Shown here: positions 5,623-32,000 of the stretch, in pieces
Position numbering within the stretch: position 1 is the stretch's first letter
Layout: each line of letters starts with the position of its first letter
Position numbers and translations under genes: made by a program
Notes under the pieces: model-generated
Told to the model about the DNA's origin: nothing
The model's input: only the letters and a program-made list of their open reading frames with translations
The model's database searches: none
Assembly (NCBI RefSeq): GCF_000020025.1
Contig: NC_010628.1
Coordinates: 840,001 to 872,000, forward strand
Reading direction: 5' to 3'
DNA length: 32,000 nt
Origin: Nostoc punctiforme PCC 73102
GTDB taxonomy: Bacteria; Cyanobacteriota; Cyanobacteriia; Cyanobacteriales; Nostocaceae

Positions 5623-5654
5623 TTGTAGGGGCATACAGATGTATGCCCCTACAA
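5623..5654. repeat. Perfect 14-bp palindromic hairpin element TTGTAGGGGCATAC-AGAT-GTATGCCCCTACAA
   Basis: Arms 5623-5636 and 5641-5654 are perfectly complementary. A related copy, TGTAGGGGCA-N10-TGCTCCTACA, sits at 30241-30270. This looks like a dispersed small palindromic repeat family. Confidence 0.8.
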
Positions 5655-18402: not shown

Positions 18403-18524
18403 TCATCTTGGGGAGGCAGAGGAAGCGGGGGGGGAATTTAAAAGTTGCCAAATCATCCGTAAATATGCAACTCCGGATTTTTTTGTATATTGTAATCATG
18501 CCTACCTGTTTATTGCAAATATGA

Positions 18525-29038: not shown

Positions 29039-29668
29039 ATGACAATAGCACCCAGTGAATCTAGCAGCAACGCTAGTGATTTGCTCACCTTAGCCTGTTG
29101 GATGTCAGGAGATTTTAGCAACTACAAGCAATCTTTTGCAAATCCCCAACTTTACGCCCACATTCACATTTTTTTTCGTCCTTTACCGATTGAATTTTTT
29201 TCTGCCATCGGTTTTTATTCAGAACAAGCTTATGACCACGATTTATGGACACCCTACCGCCAAGGAGTACATAAACTGGTAGATTGTAGCGATCGCATTT
29301 ATATCGAAAATTACAGCTTGAAAGACCAGATGCTTTATGCAGGTGCGGCTCGTGAATTAGATATCCTCAAAACTATCACCCCAGATTGTATCGAACGGCG
29401 TTATAACTGTTCGATGGTTTTTATGCGAGAGGGTGAAATGTTTCGGGGTAGCGTGGAACCGGGTAATCAATGTCTGATTAACCGCAATGGCTGCCAGACA
29501 TATCTAGTCAGTGACGTAGAAATAACCGAGCATACTTGGATAAGTCTAGATAAAGGTATGGATATTGAAACCCACAAGCAGATATGGGGGTCAACTGCTG
29601 GACCTTTGCGATTTGAAAAACGGGAAAGTTTTGCTGATGAATTACTTGCAGTGAGAGCATTATGTTGA
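29039..29668 (+). CDS. cpeT: T-type phycobiliprotein lyase (CpeT/CpcT family)
   Basis: 209 aa from the ATG at 29039 (MTIAPSES...). The motifs LACWMSGDFSNYKQSFANPQLYAHIHIFFRPLP and FYSEQAYDHDLWTPYRQGVHKL are hallmarks of CpcT/CpeT. Confidence 0.85.
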   Translation: MTIAPSESSSNASDLLTLACWMSGDFSNYKQSFANPQLYAHIHIFFRPLPIEFFSAIGFYSEQAYDHDLWTPYRQGVHKLVDCSDRIYIENYSLKDQMLYAGAARELDILKTITPDCIERRYNCSMVFMREGEMFRGSVEPGNQCLINRNGCQTYLVSDVEITEHTWISLDKGMDIETHKQIWGSTAGPLRFEKRESFADELLAVRALC

Positions 29669-30000
29669 TTCAGCTTGAATCTGTTAAATATAAAAAGTTA
29701 CCTCCACAGGCTGAAAAAAAGATGCGCTGTTGGATTCGTAGTCGGCACTTGATTTGTTCAGGTAACTTTTTTATATTCGAGACATTAGAATATACGACCA
29801 TTGAAAGATTTTCTGAATGTGTCGCTTCTTTAGGAGGAACAGTAATATCCGTTGACCCCATTAATAAAATCTGGATGGGCGCTCATCGCCAAGTAATTTT
29901 ATATCAGGCCAAAGCTAGTTTACATACTCCTCATCATACTTTGAAACAATACTGGATAAAATACGGTGGTTTCTACACTAGATTTGATGAGCGTGTTTAG
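29662..30000 (+). CDS. cpeR: Putative phycoerythrin operon activator CpeR
   Basis: 112 aa. The ATG overlaps the cpeT stop (ATGTTGA). Its size and its position after cpeS-cpeT match the cpeCDESTR arrangement known from Fremyella/Calothrix. The CWIRSRHLICSGNFFIFE...LGG block resembles CpeR as I recall it. Confidence 0.62.
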   Translation: MLIQLESVKYKKLPPQAEKKMRCWIRSRHLICSGNFFIFETLEYTTIERFSECVASLGGTVISVDPINKIWMGAHRQVILYQAKASLHTPHHTLKQYWIKYGGFYTRFDERV

Positions 30001-30060
30001 AGCGACTTTCCTACGGAAATCCTTCTGGCATTTGAATTTTAAATAGTCCCCTTGGGGATT

Positions 30061-30133
30061 GACGGCTAATTGTTAATGTTTAATTGCTAATTATTTACTA
30101 TGATTAGTTGTTACTTATTAACAGTTAGCCGTC
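30061..30133. repeat. 73-nt imperfect palindrome immediately downstream of cpeR
   Basis: GACGGCTAATTGTTAA (30061-30076) faces TTAACAGTTAGCCGTC (30118-30133), 15 of 16 complementary. There is an inner CTAAT/ATTAG stem, and the element contains two TTGTTA hexamers and one TTGCTA. Confidence 0.7.
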
Positions 30134-30650
30134 TAAGTTTGTTAGAAATACATACTGTGCAAAAGAATCCAATACTGCATAGGTTTTGTCTAACAAATAA
30201 ATTTTTATTAATCATTCTTTGATAGTAAATAAACTTACACTGTAGGGGCAATTCATGAAGTGCTCCTACAATATGTATTGTATGTAGTTTATGCAAAAAA
30301 TTATACAAAATATAGATAAATCGAAATTCTCTCTATCTAATTGGTGGTGCAATGTTTACGATGGGCTACACCTACGCAGGCTTTTTTATGTCCTAAAGCA
30401 CCACACCTTATGCAATATTAATTAACGACAACAAGAGAAAACTAAATTTTTTATTATAAACCATTACTAAATCCTTTGAGTAACTATTAATTTTTCATGA
30501 GAGTAAAATCTGTAACCGATAAATACATTTAAGTACAGAGAAAATAATATTCGTGTTTGATTGATAAGTATTTGGCAATTTGGCAGCTACTGATTAGAGT
30601 ATTTTGATATACTGCAGAAATTACCAAGATGTTTTTACTTTTTATACAGA

Positions 30651-30676
30651 AGACGGGCTAATGCCCGTCTTTTTTG
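30651..30676 (+). terminator. Intrinsic terminator T1
   Basis: AGACGGGC-TAAT-GCCCGTCT (8-bp GC-rich stem) followed by TTTTTT. Confidence 0.72.
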
Positions 30677-30876
30677 TTGTTAATTGTTTGGCATTTTGAC
30701 ATTAAATTATAATTAAGCTGTGATATATTAGCTAGAATGCAAATGATTGAAACATTAAGAATAAGCTCAACTAGCATTCTTTTTGTTCATATTATTTGTT
30801 TGTCTTACAACCTATTAAGTTTTATTTGTGCTGTTTTTTGCATATTCCAAGGTGTATTGCCACTTTCAAGCTATTT

Positions 30877-30908
30877 AGACGGGATAAACTATCCCGTCTT
30901 TTATTTTG
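30877..30908 (+). terminator. Intrinsic terminator T2 (stem related to T1)
   Basis: AGACGGGAT-AAACT-ATCCCGTCT (9-bp stem) followed by TTTTATTTTG. It shares the AGACGGG...CCCGTCTTTT core with T1. Confidence 0.62.
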
Positions 30909-30990
30909 TTTACTAGTTGAAAAAATTGCTTTCATGCAAGTTTTGCATGTAAAAATATTTTGAGTTGTTTTACTATCTTTAATATCTAAA

Positions 30991-31036
30991 TTAATCTGCC
31001 ATAGCTTCTAACATCTGGCAGATTAATTTTCTGTTT
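30991..31036 (+). terminator. Stem-loop T3 with U-rich tail (terminator or leader/attenuator hairpin)
   Basis: TTAATCTGCCA (30991-31001) and TGGCAGATTAA (31016-31026) form 11 bp with a 14-nt loop, followed by TTTTCTGTTT. It ends one nt before a GAGG plus ATG. Confidence 0.45.
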
Positions 31037-31046
31037 GAGGTATTCA

Positions 31047-31184
31047 ATGATACTAGAAAAATATCCTATCAGGTTTGAGGATATTTGCACACATCCTATA
31101 GGAAGATGCCCTATGAATATAATAATGAGTAAATTAATTCGGGATGTTGTTATGCACTGGATTTATATAGAGGTTTGGCGGTGA
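31047..31184 (+). CDS. Candidate 45-aa micro-ORF (MILEKYPIRFEDICTHPIGRCPMNIIMSKLIRDVVMHWIYIEVWR)
   Basis: GAGG (31037-31040) lies 6 nt before the ATG, and the TGA stop falls in the loop of terminator T4. Against it, 5 of 8 Ile codons are ATA and it uses AGG/CGG codons, so it may be a non-coding RNA instead. Confidence 0.25.
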   Translation: MILEKYPIRFEDICTHPIGRCPMNIIMSKLIRDVVMHWIYIEVWR

Positions 31185-31199
31185 GCCAAACCTTTTTTT
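31171..31199 (+). terminator. Intrinsic terminator T4
   Basis: AGGTTTGGC-GGTGA-GCCAAACCT (9-bp stem) followed by TTTTTTT. Confidence 0.72.
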
Positions 31200-31302
31200 A
31201 TATCTCCAGAACTCACACAAAAATCGCCAAAAAATTTAATTTATCAGATGGCTCTCTCGTCTTATATGCTGTAAGCTCTATAATGTTTGTCTGCAAGCAA
31301 AA

Positions 31303-32000
31303 TTAAAAACTAAAAGTACTCCGCAGAATGCCGATGGTAACTGAGTCACTATCTGGTGTATTACCAGGCTGCAAGAGATGAATTATTCCTGGTGTAATGC
31401 TAATATTATCTGTTAGCTGGAAACGATAAAATGCCTCAATTTGAGTGGTAGTCCCTGGTTGTCCACCTGCACGTCCTAAACCGGTATTAATAAAATCAGG
31501 GACATTATTCCCCACAGGTAGGTCGCTACTAGTGATTTTAGGAGGTTGACCGACATAAATTCCCCCCAAATTTCCTTTAGCAAATAAATCAGGGAAATTC
31601 ATAAACACCATATAATTCGTCGTTTCTACATTTCCCGATTGCCCAGGAATGTAAGATTTAGTATAACCACCCCACGCACCTGCGCTAATGCGAGGTGAAA
31701 TTTGCCAAGTGACAGTCGCACCCACAGCATTAGTTTGCAAAGGTGCTGATTTTCCGGTAGTGGTATTAACTGTAGTTAAGCATTCATCGCCAACAAAGGT
31801 TAGCAAGCAACCATCCGAAGAATAATTGTTGACGTAATATAAGCTTAAATCTAGAGTGTCAGTTGGTGTTAGCAGCAATTGCACACCAGTAGTTGTGGTT
31901 CCATCGAATAAACCGCTACTGTTACCGGGATTACCTGGTTTATAACTCGTATAAATTGCCTGCAAACTAGCGCGTTTAGCAAATTGCCAATCAATAGCTA
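31303..32000 (-). CDS. OprB-type outer-membrane porin, C-terminal part (gene continues past the right edge)
   Basis: The reading frame stays open upstream of the track's TTG 'start' (...AIDWQFAKRASLQAIYTSY...). The beta-barrel-like Gly/Asn/Thr/aromatic pattern has a C-terminus, ITPGIIHLLQPGN...GILRSTFSF, that parallels the porin at 13958-15733 (ITPGVIWLTSPGQ...GTLRTTFTF). Confidence 0.82.
   Translation of the reverse strand, partial: AIDWQFAKRASLQAIYTSYKPGNPGNSSGLFDGTTTTGVQLLLTPTDTLDLSLYYVNNYSSDGCLLTFVGDECLTTVNTTTGKSAPLQTNAVGATVTWQISPRISAGAWGGYTKSYIPGQSGNVETTNYMVFMNFPDLFAKGNLGGIYVGQPPKITSSDLPVGNNVPDFINTGLGRAGGQPGTTTQIEAFYRFQLTDNISITPGIIHLLQPGNTPDSDSVTIGILRSTFSF

Follow-up and report, generated by a model that had tools for sequence, protein, structure and literature searches.

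A probable small RNA gene island of heterocyst-forming cyanobacteria in Nostoc punctiforme, with one predicted promoter design for NsiR8 and a candidate new RNA

Described relatives of the locus and its four modules

Two neighboring small RNA (sRNA) genes of Nostoc PCC 7120 are the closest described counterparts of the locus analyzed here. NsiR8, a 171-nt RNA with a transcription start site (TSS) at 4547556r, is induced by nitrogen step-down only in the presence of HetR, as determined by Northern blot, and the PnsiR8-gfp fusion lights developing heterocysts (Brenes-Alvarez et al., 2016; PMC4734099). The second RNA, of ~51 nt, starts at 4547237r, 319 nt away on the same strand, and accumulates on long nitrogen deprivation or in stationary phase; both RNAs were verified by Northern blot and primer extension, both gave rise to Rfam families (RF02593 and RF02596, respectively), and the supplement of that study lists only the two known sRNAs at 4547xxx (PMC4734099). 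A further described system is NsiR1, whose tandemly arranged units lie upstream of hetF (RF02399; Ionescu et al., 2010, as cited in PMC4734099). We analyzed a 32,000-nt stretch of Nostoc punctiforme PCC 73102 (contig NC_010628.1, positions 840,001 to 872,000; hereafter the window, numbered from its first letter), in which the interval 30001-31302 separates the stop codon of a cpeR gene from a convergent porin gene. The segment 30571-31200 is very probably a conserved sRNA gene island of heterocyst-forming cyanobacteria, composed of four same-strand modules that each have their own intrinsic terminator: an undescribed sRNA (unit 1), NsiR8 (unit 2), a hairpin termed T3 (unit 3), and the RF02596 sRNA (unit 4), with units 1 and 2 sharing a promoter design.

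An Rfam scan of the window at curated thresholds returned exactly two matches, both within the interval and both exceeding their gathering scores, which contradicts the statement of the first-pass annotation, made by eye, that nothing there resembles a known RNA family. The RF02593 match (30725-30898, plus strand; model positions 1-172 of 172) scored 67.4 bits (E = 4.7e-10; gathering score, 61), and a uridine tail extends unit 2 to 30908. RF02596, or cyano_het_sRNA, matched at 31141-31196 within unit 4 (31141-31199, plus strand; model positions 1-56 of 56) with 86.3 bits against 35.7 (E = 8.6e-16). The reverse complement of oligonucleotide NC-7-6, used for primer extension and Northern blot in PCC 7120, agrees with 31159-31189 at 29 of 31 positions, and RF02596 is therefore the 4547237r RNA. 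Units 2 and 4 correspond to the gene pair at 4.547 Mb in PCC 7120, with order and strand preserved, and their Rfam starts lie 416 nt apart in the window. The pairing of NsiR8 with the RF02596 RNA is thus already known, two of the four units are rediscoveries, and the region is to be annotated with these two names.

Comparison with the PCC 7120 genes revealed both retained and divergent features. Unit 2 keeps the conserved 3′ part of NsiR8, CCAAGGUGUAUUGCCACUUUCAAGCUA, with its terminator, and precedes the RF02596 gene in the same orientation; in contrast, its 5′ half has strongly diverged from the Rfam family, and a second gene with the same promoter type precedes it. Unit 4 resembles its PCC 7120 counterpart in its near-identical sequence, two-hairpin structure, and conserved upstream 75 bp, but the T3 hairpin is inserted upstream of it in the clade of the window.

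All four hairpins have uridine-rich tails on the plus strand and lie essentially where the first-pass annotation had placed them. A terminator scan called T1 (stem 30648-30673, 11 bp, followed by TTGTTGTT), T2 (30877-30899, 10 bp, followed by TTTATTTT), and T4 (31169-31195, 11 bp, followed by TTTTATAT). T3 was found as an inverted repeat with perfect 14-bp arms at 30988-31001 and 31016-31029, a 14-nt loop, and the tail TTTTCTGTTT (-19.6 kcal/mol, z = -3.7); it was not called by the scan because its loop is longer than the 8-nt limit. Only five sites in the whole window have at least 10 pairs including at least 5 G-C pairs, and three of these are T1, T2, and T4, whose clustering on the plus strand within 550 nt exceeds chance. 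The sole direct repeat among the units (27 nt, 78% identity) joins the 3′ halves of the T1 and T2 terminators.

Like the NsiR1 array, the locus is a row of same-strand sRNA units with promoters and terminators in heterocystous cyanobacteria, at least one of them (NsiR8, as shown in PCC 7120) heterocyst-specific. However, the NsiR1 units are near-identical direct repeats with a DIF1 element (TCCGGA) at -35, whereas the four units of the window differ in sequence and lack TCCGGA, and RF02399 had no match in 29900-31400 at E <= 10; the suggested likeness to NsiR1 repeats therefore does not amount to membership. The more general proposal of tandem small transcription units stands for NsiR8 and RF02596 and fits the hallmarks of unit 1, and T3 may or may not end a transcript of its own.

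To assess the distribution of the modules, a 19-nt RF02596 core was used to retrieve at least 120 loci (numbered with the prefix L) from contigs representing one genome per species. The RF02596 RNA was present in 119 of the 120 scanned loci; L069, labeled 'Bdellovibrionales' and suspected of contamination, shares the 19-mer by chance and carries no sRNA. Most of the 119 loci, nearly all in fact, carry labels of Nostocales genera, a few are cyanobacterial metagenome-assembled genomes with the same cluster, and the loci labeled 'Chroococcales' (L093, L108) and 'Leptolyngbyaceae' (L115) hold the full Nostocales-type cluster. Among the matches listed, RF02596 is restricted to heterocystous cyanobacteria, and the window has its closest relatives in Nostoc sp. 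LEGE 12450 (L009, 96%) and Nostoc sp. NMS2 (L043, 93.5%).

Conservation beyond these closest relatives is confined to 30571-31200. The part at ~30570-30910 can be aligned between many genera, among them Nostoc, Calothrix, Cylindrospermum, Sphaerospermopsis, Trichormus azollae, and Anabaena, and 31068-31200, of which 31068-31140 belongs to the unit 4 promoter, aligns in nearly all loci listed. Among the same loci, 30001-30470 is alignable only in L009 and L043, with indels. We regard 30001-30570 as a fast-evolving spacer, and the 1.3-kb extent originally assigned to the cluster was too large by these first 570 nt.

The modules are gained and lost independently. All four occur in the window and in L009, L043, L074, L083, L090, and L103; units 1, 2, and 4 in many genera; units 2 and 4 in PCC 7120-like strains, Dolichospermum, and Nodularia; and units 3 and 4, or unit 4 alone, in the rest of the loci. 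Unit 1 accompanies unit 4, with or without unit 3, in the absence of NsiR8 in at least 11 loci, and NsiR8 occurs without unit 1 in about 23, the PCC 7120-like loci included. NsiR8 homologues, detected in at least 68 loci, precede the RF02596 gene in the same orientation in 66 of 68; in L001 (Anabaena catenula) and L062 (A. lutea), the entire block of unit 1 and NsiR8, both box promoters included, is reversed relative to that gene. This pattern speaks against the view that unit 1 is no more than a leader of NsiR8 and against the terminators serving flanking protein genes, and it provides a natural experiment on what each RNA does.

In Dolichospermum/Anabaena loci L004, L026, L046, L057, and L091, a box TTTG(G/C)CATTTTGGCA is located ~147 nt upstream of the RF02596 core and is followed almost directly by a terminator hairpin (GGACGG..CCGTCC TTTATTTTT). 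The body of NsiR8 appears to have been deleted there, leaving the box and the terminator.

Unit 1 and the box promoter

Unit 1 is a predicted sRNA of ~57 nt, here called T1 RNA (30620-30679, plus strand; start placed within about 5 nt). Its upstream box (30571-30585, TTTGGCAATTTGGCA) is nearly invariant in 56 T1 homologues and is followed at exactly 19 nt by the extended -10 element TG-A-TATACT (30605-30613; -10 hexamer 30608-30613). The RNA would consist of a conserved 5′ core, AUUACCAAGAUGUUUUUAC, and the terminator at 30648-30673; in the computed fold of 30620-30678 (-18.9 kcal/mol, z = -4.7), only the terminator is formed and the core is unpaired. An unpaired core joined to a terminator is the usual design of a base-pairing sRNA, and the unit 1 core is presumably a base-pairing seed that would act on targets in trans. 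No site complementary to the core was found in the window beyond chance expectation.

With 30565-30685 as the query, nhmmer detected unit 1 in at least 56 of the 119 loci in addition to the window (E values of 1e-10 to 1e-23), as a single copy each. The homologues lie ahead of the RF02596 gene and in its orientation, apart from the two Anabaena species with the inverted block. In the alignment of 56 distinct sequences (A1), a nearly invariant box, ATTTGGCAnTTTGGCA, precedes 19 variable nucleotides and an invariant TG-n-TA...T, in which the invariant columns G47, T49, A50, and T54 define TGnTAnnnT; past the -10 element follow an almost invariant stretch, GCAGAAATTACCAAGATGTTTTTAC, a variable linker, and a hairpin with a uridine tail. 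The terminator stem covaries, with changes on both sides in 5 of 8 pairs, 94.4% of cells paired, and a covariation score of 0.309 as compared with 0.169 for shuffled and at most 0.111 for slid controls. Examples of compensatory changes are GACGGG/CCCGTC, GCACGG/CCGTGC, and GATGGG/CCCATC. The promoter scan called a sigma-70 hexamer pair, TTGGCA-17-TAGAGT (30572-30600), which we do not accept as the promoter of unit 1 because its -10 hexamer is part of the variable spacer, whereas TGnTAnnnT is invariant.

Neither unit 1 nor T3 corresponds to an Rfam family, as only sub-threshold matches to unrelated families were obtained in 29900-31400 at E <= 10, and a search of the searchable literature text with the T1 core string found no relevant paper. 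The PCC 7120-like loci L060, L081, L115, and L117 have no unit 1 upstream of NsiR8, and its absence from these sampled loci would explain why work on the model strain missed it. The sequence evidence makes it credible that unit 1 is a new, undescribed sRNA gene, which would be the third widely conserved one at this locus and invisible to model-strain work.

As read from the DNA, units 1 and 2 share one promoter design, TTTGGCAnTTTGGCA, 19 nt, and TGnTAnnnT, that is, a 15-bp box TTTG(G/C)CA-N-TTTGGCA, exactly 19 variable nucleotides, and an extended -10 element. In unit 2, the box is at 30687-30701 (TTTGGCATTTTGACA) and the extended -10 element TG-A-TATATT at 30721-30729, 19 nt past the box (-10 hexamer 30724-30729), all on the plus strand. 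The pattern TTTGSCANNNNGRCA occurs three times in the window compared to 0.13 expected occurrences. The loci and the window together (0.96 Mb) contain 127 boxes, 92 of which have TGnTAnnnT at exactly 19 nt, and every box with the 19-nt spacing lies inside the sRNA cluster. The box also precedes NsiR8 in other genera and in the PCC 7120-like loci L060, L081, L115, and L117. In some strains it takes the form TTTGCCAnTTTGGCA, the palindrome TGCCA-N3-TGGCA, and therefore the box reads as two TGSCA half-sites 8 bp apart.

The box promoters have no -35 hexamer at 17 bp. The starts predicted from the conserved -10 elements lie near 30620 for unit 1 and near 30736 for unit 2, and the box is centered ~37-42 nt upstream of them. 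At class II promoters, activators that replace the -35 contact usually sit about that far upstream. The position of the box hence suggests that a candidate factor binding it would switch units 1 and 2 on together. Such joint activation would take place in developing heterocysts, a timing suggested for both units because NsiR8 of PCC 7120 is HetR-dependent and heterocyst-specific; the promoter signature that unit 1 has in common with it predicts co-regulation.

The closest known layout is that of class II (NtcA-type) cyanobacterial promoters, which likewise lack a recognizable -35 hexamer at 17 bp and have a conserved 14- to 15-bp site that is centered ~40 nt ahead of the start and keeps a constant spacing to a TAnnnT -10 element. 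The box promoters differ from them in the site itself, TTTG(G/C)CA-N-TTTGGCA rather than GTA-N8-TAC, and in the TG upstream of the -10 element. The layout of box and extended -10 element of NsiR8 was derived here and was not found in the searchable literature text. DIF1, whose TCCGGA motif is now assigned to sigma-HetZ (PMC13342950), was rejected as the identity of the box, which lacks TCCGGA; the sole TCCGGA in the window is at 18472. The CnfR-associated motif TGAGTACA was rejected as well, since it does not match, and a literature match to TTTGGCA together with 'heterocyst' turned out to be a primer. The box thus offers a handle on a heterocyst-specific promoter without DIF1.

We further searched metagenomes for the composite pattern TTTGGCANTTTGGCA-N19-TGNTANNNT and obtained 75 loci (L121-L195), 8 of which contained unit 1 and about 6 NsiR8. 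In 25 of the metagenome loci (19 distinct sequences), the composite promoter is followed by a terminator-ended sequence of ~62 nt, termed X1, which reads GCGAATGTCTTTGTGCGA(T/C)AAT(T/A)CCGACTTGCAGAATCCCTCGG-loop-CCGGGGGTCTTTTTT and can also be written as GCGAAUGUCUUUGUGCGA...CGACUUGCAGAAUCCCUCGG plus a terminator or as GCGAAUGUCUUUGUGCGAUAAUUCCGACUUGCAGAAUCCCUCGG... (e.g., L127:1246-1362); its conservation starts 6-7 nt past the -10 element. A different hairpin RNA, X2, follows the same promoter in four metagenome loci. The contigs with X1 and X2 are cyanobacterial by their density of HIP1 (GCGATCGC), 0.2-1.4 per kb. Comparison of X1 with Rfam at gathering and E-value thresholds returned no family, just a weak RybB-like terminator match; X2 is not in Rfam, and the exact X1 core string led to no relevant paper in the searchable literature text. 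The other metagenome matches, which fall in tandem repeats or coding sequence, seem to have arisen by chance. As the search required the promoter, the fraction of X1 genes that carry it is not derivable from these counts.

These matches suggest that the box promoter may represent an sRNA promoter class wider than this locus, and the same signature before other uncharacterized sRNAs hints at an sRNA regulon. We tentatively propose that TTTGGCAnTTTGGCA-N19-TGnTAnnnT could be the target of a dedicated candidate transcription factor, or sigma-associated factor, with a regulon consisting largely of sRNAs across cyanobacteria (NsiR8, unit 1, X1, and X2), although we consider this somewhat less probable than not. 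If it is true, heterocyst-specific expression of NsiR8 runs via a factor other than HetR or sigma-HetZ/DIF1.

Several points weigh against the interpretation of the segment as an island of sRNA genes with a shared promoter. The NsiR8 match is just 6 bits over its threshold, with many non-canonical pairs in the 5′ half; in the cmscan alignment, non-standard pairs fall in the 5′ helices and the 3′ hairpins fit. The Rfam model begins at 30725, whereas promoter geometry places the start 11 nt further downstream, and if 30725 corresponds to the start mapped in PCC 7120, the -10 element of NsiR8 would shift 5 nt upstream. Unit 1 is a gene by prediction in every strain that carries it, and the exact string of the full box has no description in the searchable literature text. 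T3 has a weak candidate promoter, which the N. linckia clade does not share. Template switching at hairpins, for which there are signs at T4 (see below), could imitate compensatory change without selection on RNA structure. Finally, unit 1 and NsiR8 as paralogues could not be upheld: their similarity is significant over the full units (43 vs 20.2 +/- 3.6) but is owed to the terminator alone, and it is not significant without the terminator (22 vs 19.1 +/- 3.4). A common origin of the two is possible, although these values do not demonstrate it. Similarity between T1 and T4, T1 and T3, and NsiR8 and T4 is not significant either.

The unit 4 promoter, the T3 hairpin and alternative readings

Column conservation in 114 distinct sequences delineated a promoter region of unit 4 at 31040-31140 (plus strand), with a conserved span of about 75-100 bp upstream of 31141. 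Its distal element, GTA-N8-TAC at 31040-31053 (~-95), is moderately conserved and NtcA-like in sequence, but it is not spaced as in a class II NtcA promoter. The conserved TATCAGGTTT (31067-31076) includes TATCAG at about -72, TCCTATAGGAAGATGC (31094-31109) holds the 10-bp palindrome TCCTATAGGA centered at -42.5, and the -10 element TAAATT is at 31130-31135; GGAAGATG and TATCAG are at least 95% conserved. This architecture suggests several regulators. The unit 4 promoter is unrelated to the box promoter, and unit 4 would therefore be regulated separately.

Unit 3 (30988-31036, plus strand) consists of the T3 hairpin and its U-rich tail. Among the loci listed, it was found in the Nostoc clade of the window, the N. 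linckia clade, Komarekiella, and Nostoc MG11, always directly upstream of the unit 4 promoter. In 29 distinct homologues, both-side changes occurred in 8 of 15 pairs, with 91.5% of cells paired and a covariation score of 0.295 as compared with 0.134 (shuffled) and at most 0.12 (slid). The arms vary by clade yet remain complementary (AATTAAT/ATTAATT, AATTGTT/AACAATT, and AATTCTT/AAGAATT; CTGCC/GGCAG, CTGTC/GACAG, and GAGCC/GGCTC).

The count of four sRNA genes depends on whether T3 defines a gene. T3 could instead be an insulating terminator or a protein-bound palindrome of the RF02596 regulatory region, leaving three sRNA genes, and we give this reading a little under an even chance. It accounts for the fixed position of T3 at the unit 4 promoter and for the character of its candidate promoter (TTGCTT at 30927-30932, 17 nt, TAAAAA at 30950-30955, plus strand), which is weak, was not called by the promoter scan, and differs among clades. 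It also fits seven loci (L015, L033, L047, and L076 among them) in which units 1 and 2 are deleted up to the T2 loop and T3 is kept with unit 4: only TATCTCGTCTTTTATTTGG of the T2 3′ half is left there, right after a ThiS/MoaD-like gene that ends in ...VAGG* and reads toward T3 and unit 4. On the other side, the U-rich tract is present on the plus strand only, the stem has 12 G-U cells on that strand as compared with 8 A-C cells (a weak strand signal), and the ~60 nt upstream of T3 are conserved within the Nostoc clade and could be a transcript body. We favor T3 as a read-through barrier protecting the unit 4 promoter, which would most likely stop transcription arriving from upstream and leave unit 4 under its own promoter alone; T3 may also end a transcript of ~75 nt from the weak promoter, and a fourth sRNA is thus a live alternative.

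A less probable interpretation concerns unit 1, which could be a cis module of NsiR8 that tunes it as a tandem promoter and terminator, by occlusion, competition for an activator, or read-through. Units 1 and 2 are adjacent in at least 45 loci, the NsiR8 box begins ~10 nt past the T1 uridine tail, the two share the box and a nearly identical terminator sequence, and they invert together in L001 and L062. However, the at least 11 loci with unit 1 and no NsiR8, and the about 23 with the converse, show that each persists without the other, and conservation of unit 1 peaks in the transcribed unpaired core and not in the promoter spacer, as expected of a functional RNA. We therefore consider a purely cis-acting role of unit 1 unlikely and retain its reading as a separate sRNA gene.

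That the units are toxin-antitoxin or micro-protein cassettes, as the first-pass annotation had offered, is very improbable. A hydrophobic 59-aa open reading frame (ORF) at 30737-30916 does coincide with NsiR8, and a 10-codon ORF starts at an AUG in the unit 1 core. However, the former is intact only in the window, L009, and L043, its counterparts in L090, L074, and L103 are truncated to 10-21 aa, and across 67 homologues the longest ORF has a median length of 10 aa; the frame of the latter is shifted by 1-nt indels in L019, L022, and L090, it has no Shine-Dalgarno sequence, and the promoter scan found no promoter for an antisense partner. Still less tenable is the view of the hairpins as chance structures in AT-rich junk, or as terminators of cpeR and the porin gene, although the region is indeed AT-rich and follows the last gene of the cpe operon, with a convergent gene on its other side. 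Units 1, 2, and 4 are conserved with their promoters in genomes without adjoining cpe genes; the cpeR side recurs in L009 and L043 alone, and the porin gene is the neighbor in 43 of 93 loci; T1 is 650 nt from the cpeR stop, with a separate 74-nt hairpin right after cpeR; and T1 and T3 covary. The comparative data thus already contradict this view.

Flanking genes and minor observations

The interval lies between the stop of a 112-aa ORF (29662-30000, plus strand), located downstream of genes for CpeS and CpeT (Pfam), and a gene on the minus strand from 31303 onward that encodes an OprB-family porin (Pfam). The 112-aa ORF was identified as CpeR from the name in its protein cluster, 'CpeR family transcriptional regulator', as neither Pfam nor NCBIfam has a CpeR model. 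The location between cpeR and a convergent porin gene is thus borne out. Among the loci listed, the cpe side is common to L009 and L043 only; of the 93 loci that extend far enough downstream, 43 have the convergent porin gene as a direct neighbor, and 22 other loci have a large plus-strand ORF downstream instead.

The GC content is 0.29-0.30 in the interval versus roughly 0.42 across most of the window. The earlier impression that no convincing ORF of 60 aa or more exists was correct, the sole longer one (65 aa, 30111-30308, minus strand) not being conserved; the plus strand has ORFs of 59 and 55 aa, neither of them conserved. No tRNA or tmRNA genes were found in the scan.

At the porin side, the stretch from the porin stop (31303) to T4 (31200-31302) was found to contain no terminator on the minus strand. 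The porin mRNA may therefore run into T4 and be antisense to the RF02596 RNA at the 3′ end of the latter. A duplex prediction with the porin translation-initiation region was abandoned because its start codons were ambiguous.

The T4 loop (31177-31187) is inverted between close relatives, GGCGGTGAGCC in the window and GGCTCACCGCC in L009, so that unit 4 differs from its closest relative in a terminator loop of CGGTGAG as compared with CTCACCG. Across the 119 loci, the orientation is YGGTGAR in ~30 and YTCACCR in ~45, and flips also occurred among L043, L074, L083, and others. The flips among close relatives imply template switching within hairpins at this locus, which probably accounts for the repeated inversion of the T4 loop.

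Two features lie in the spacer 30001-30570. A 74-nt near-perfect AT-rich hairpin at 30061-30134, 60 nt past the cpeR stop (-36 kcal/mol, z = -10.8; no uridine tail), is kept only in L009 and L043 among the loci listed; it may mark where the cpe operon ends on its 3′ side, or it may be a palindromic insertion. The second, a palindrome GTAGGGGC...GCTCCTAC at 30241-30270, belongs to a GTAGGGGC...GCCCCTAC type that recurs at 5623-5654 on the minus strand and is apparently a dispersed short repeat of the genome.

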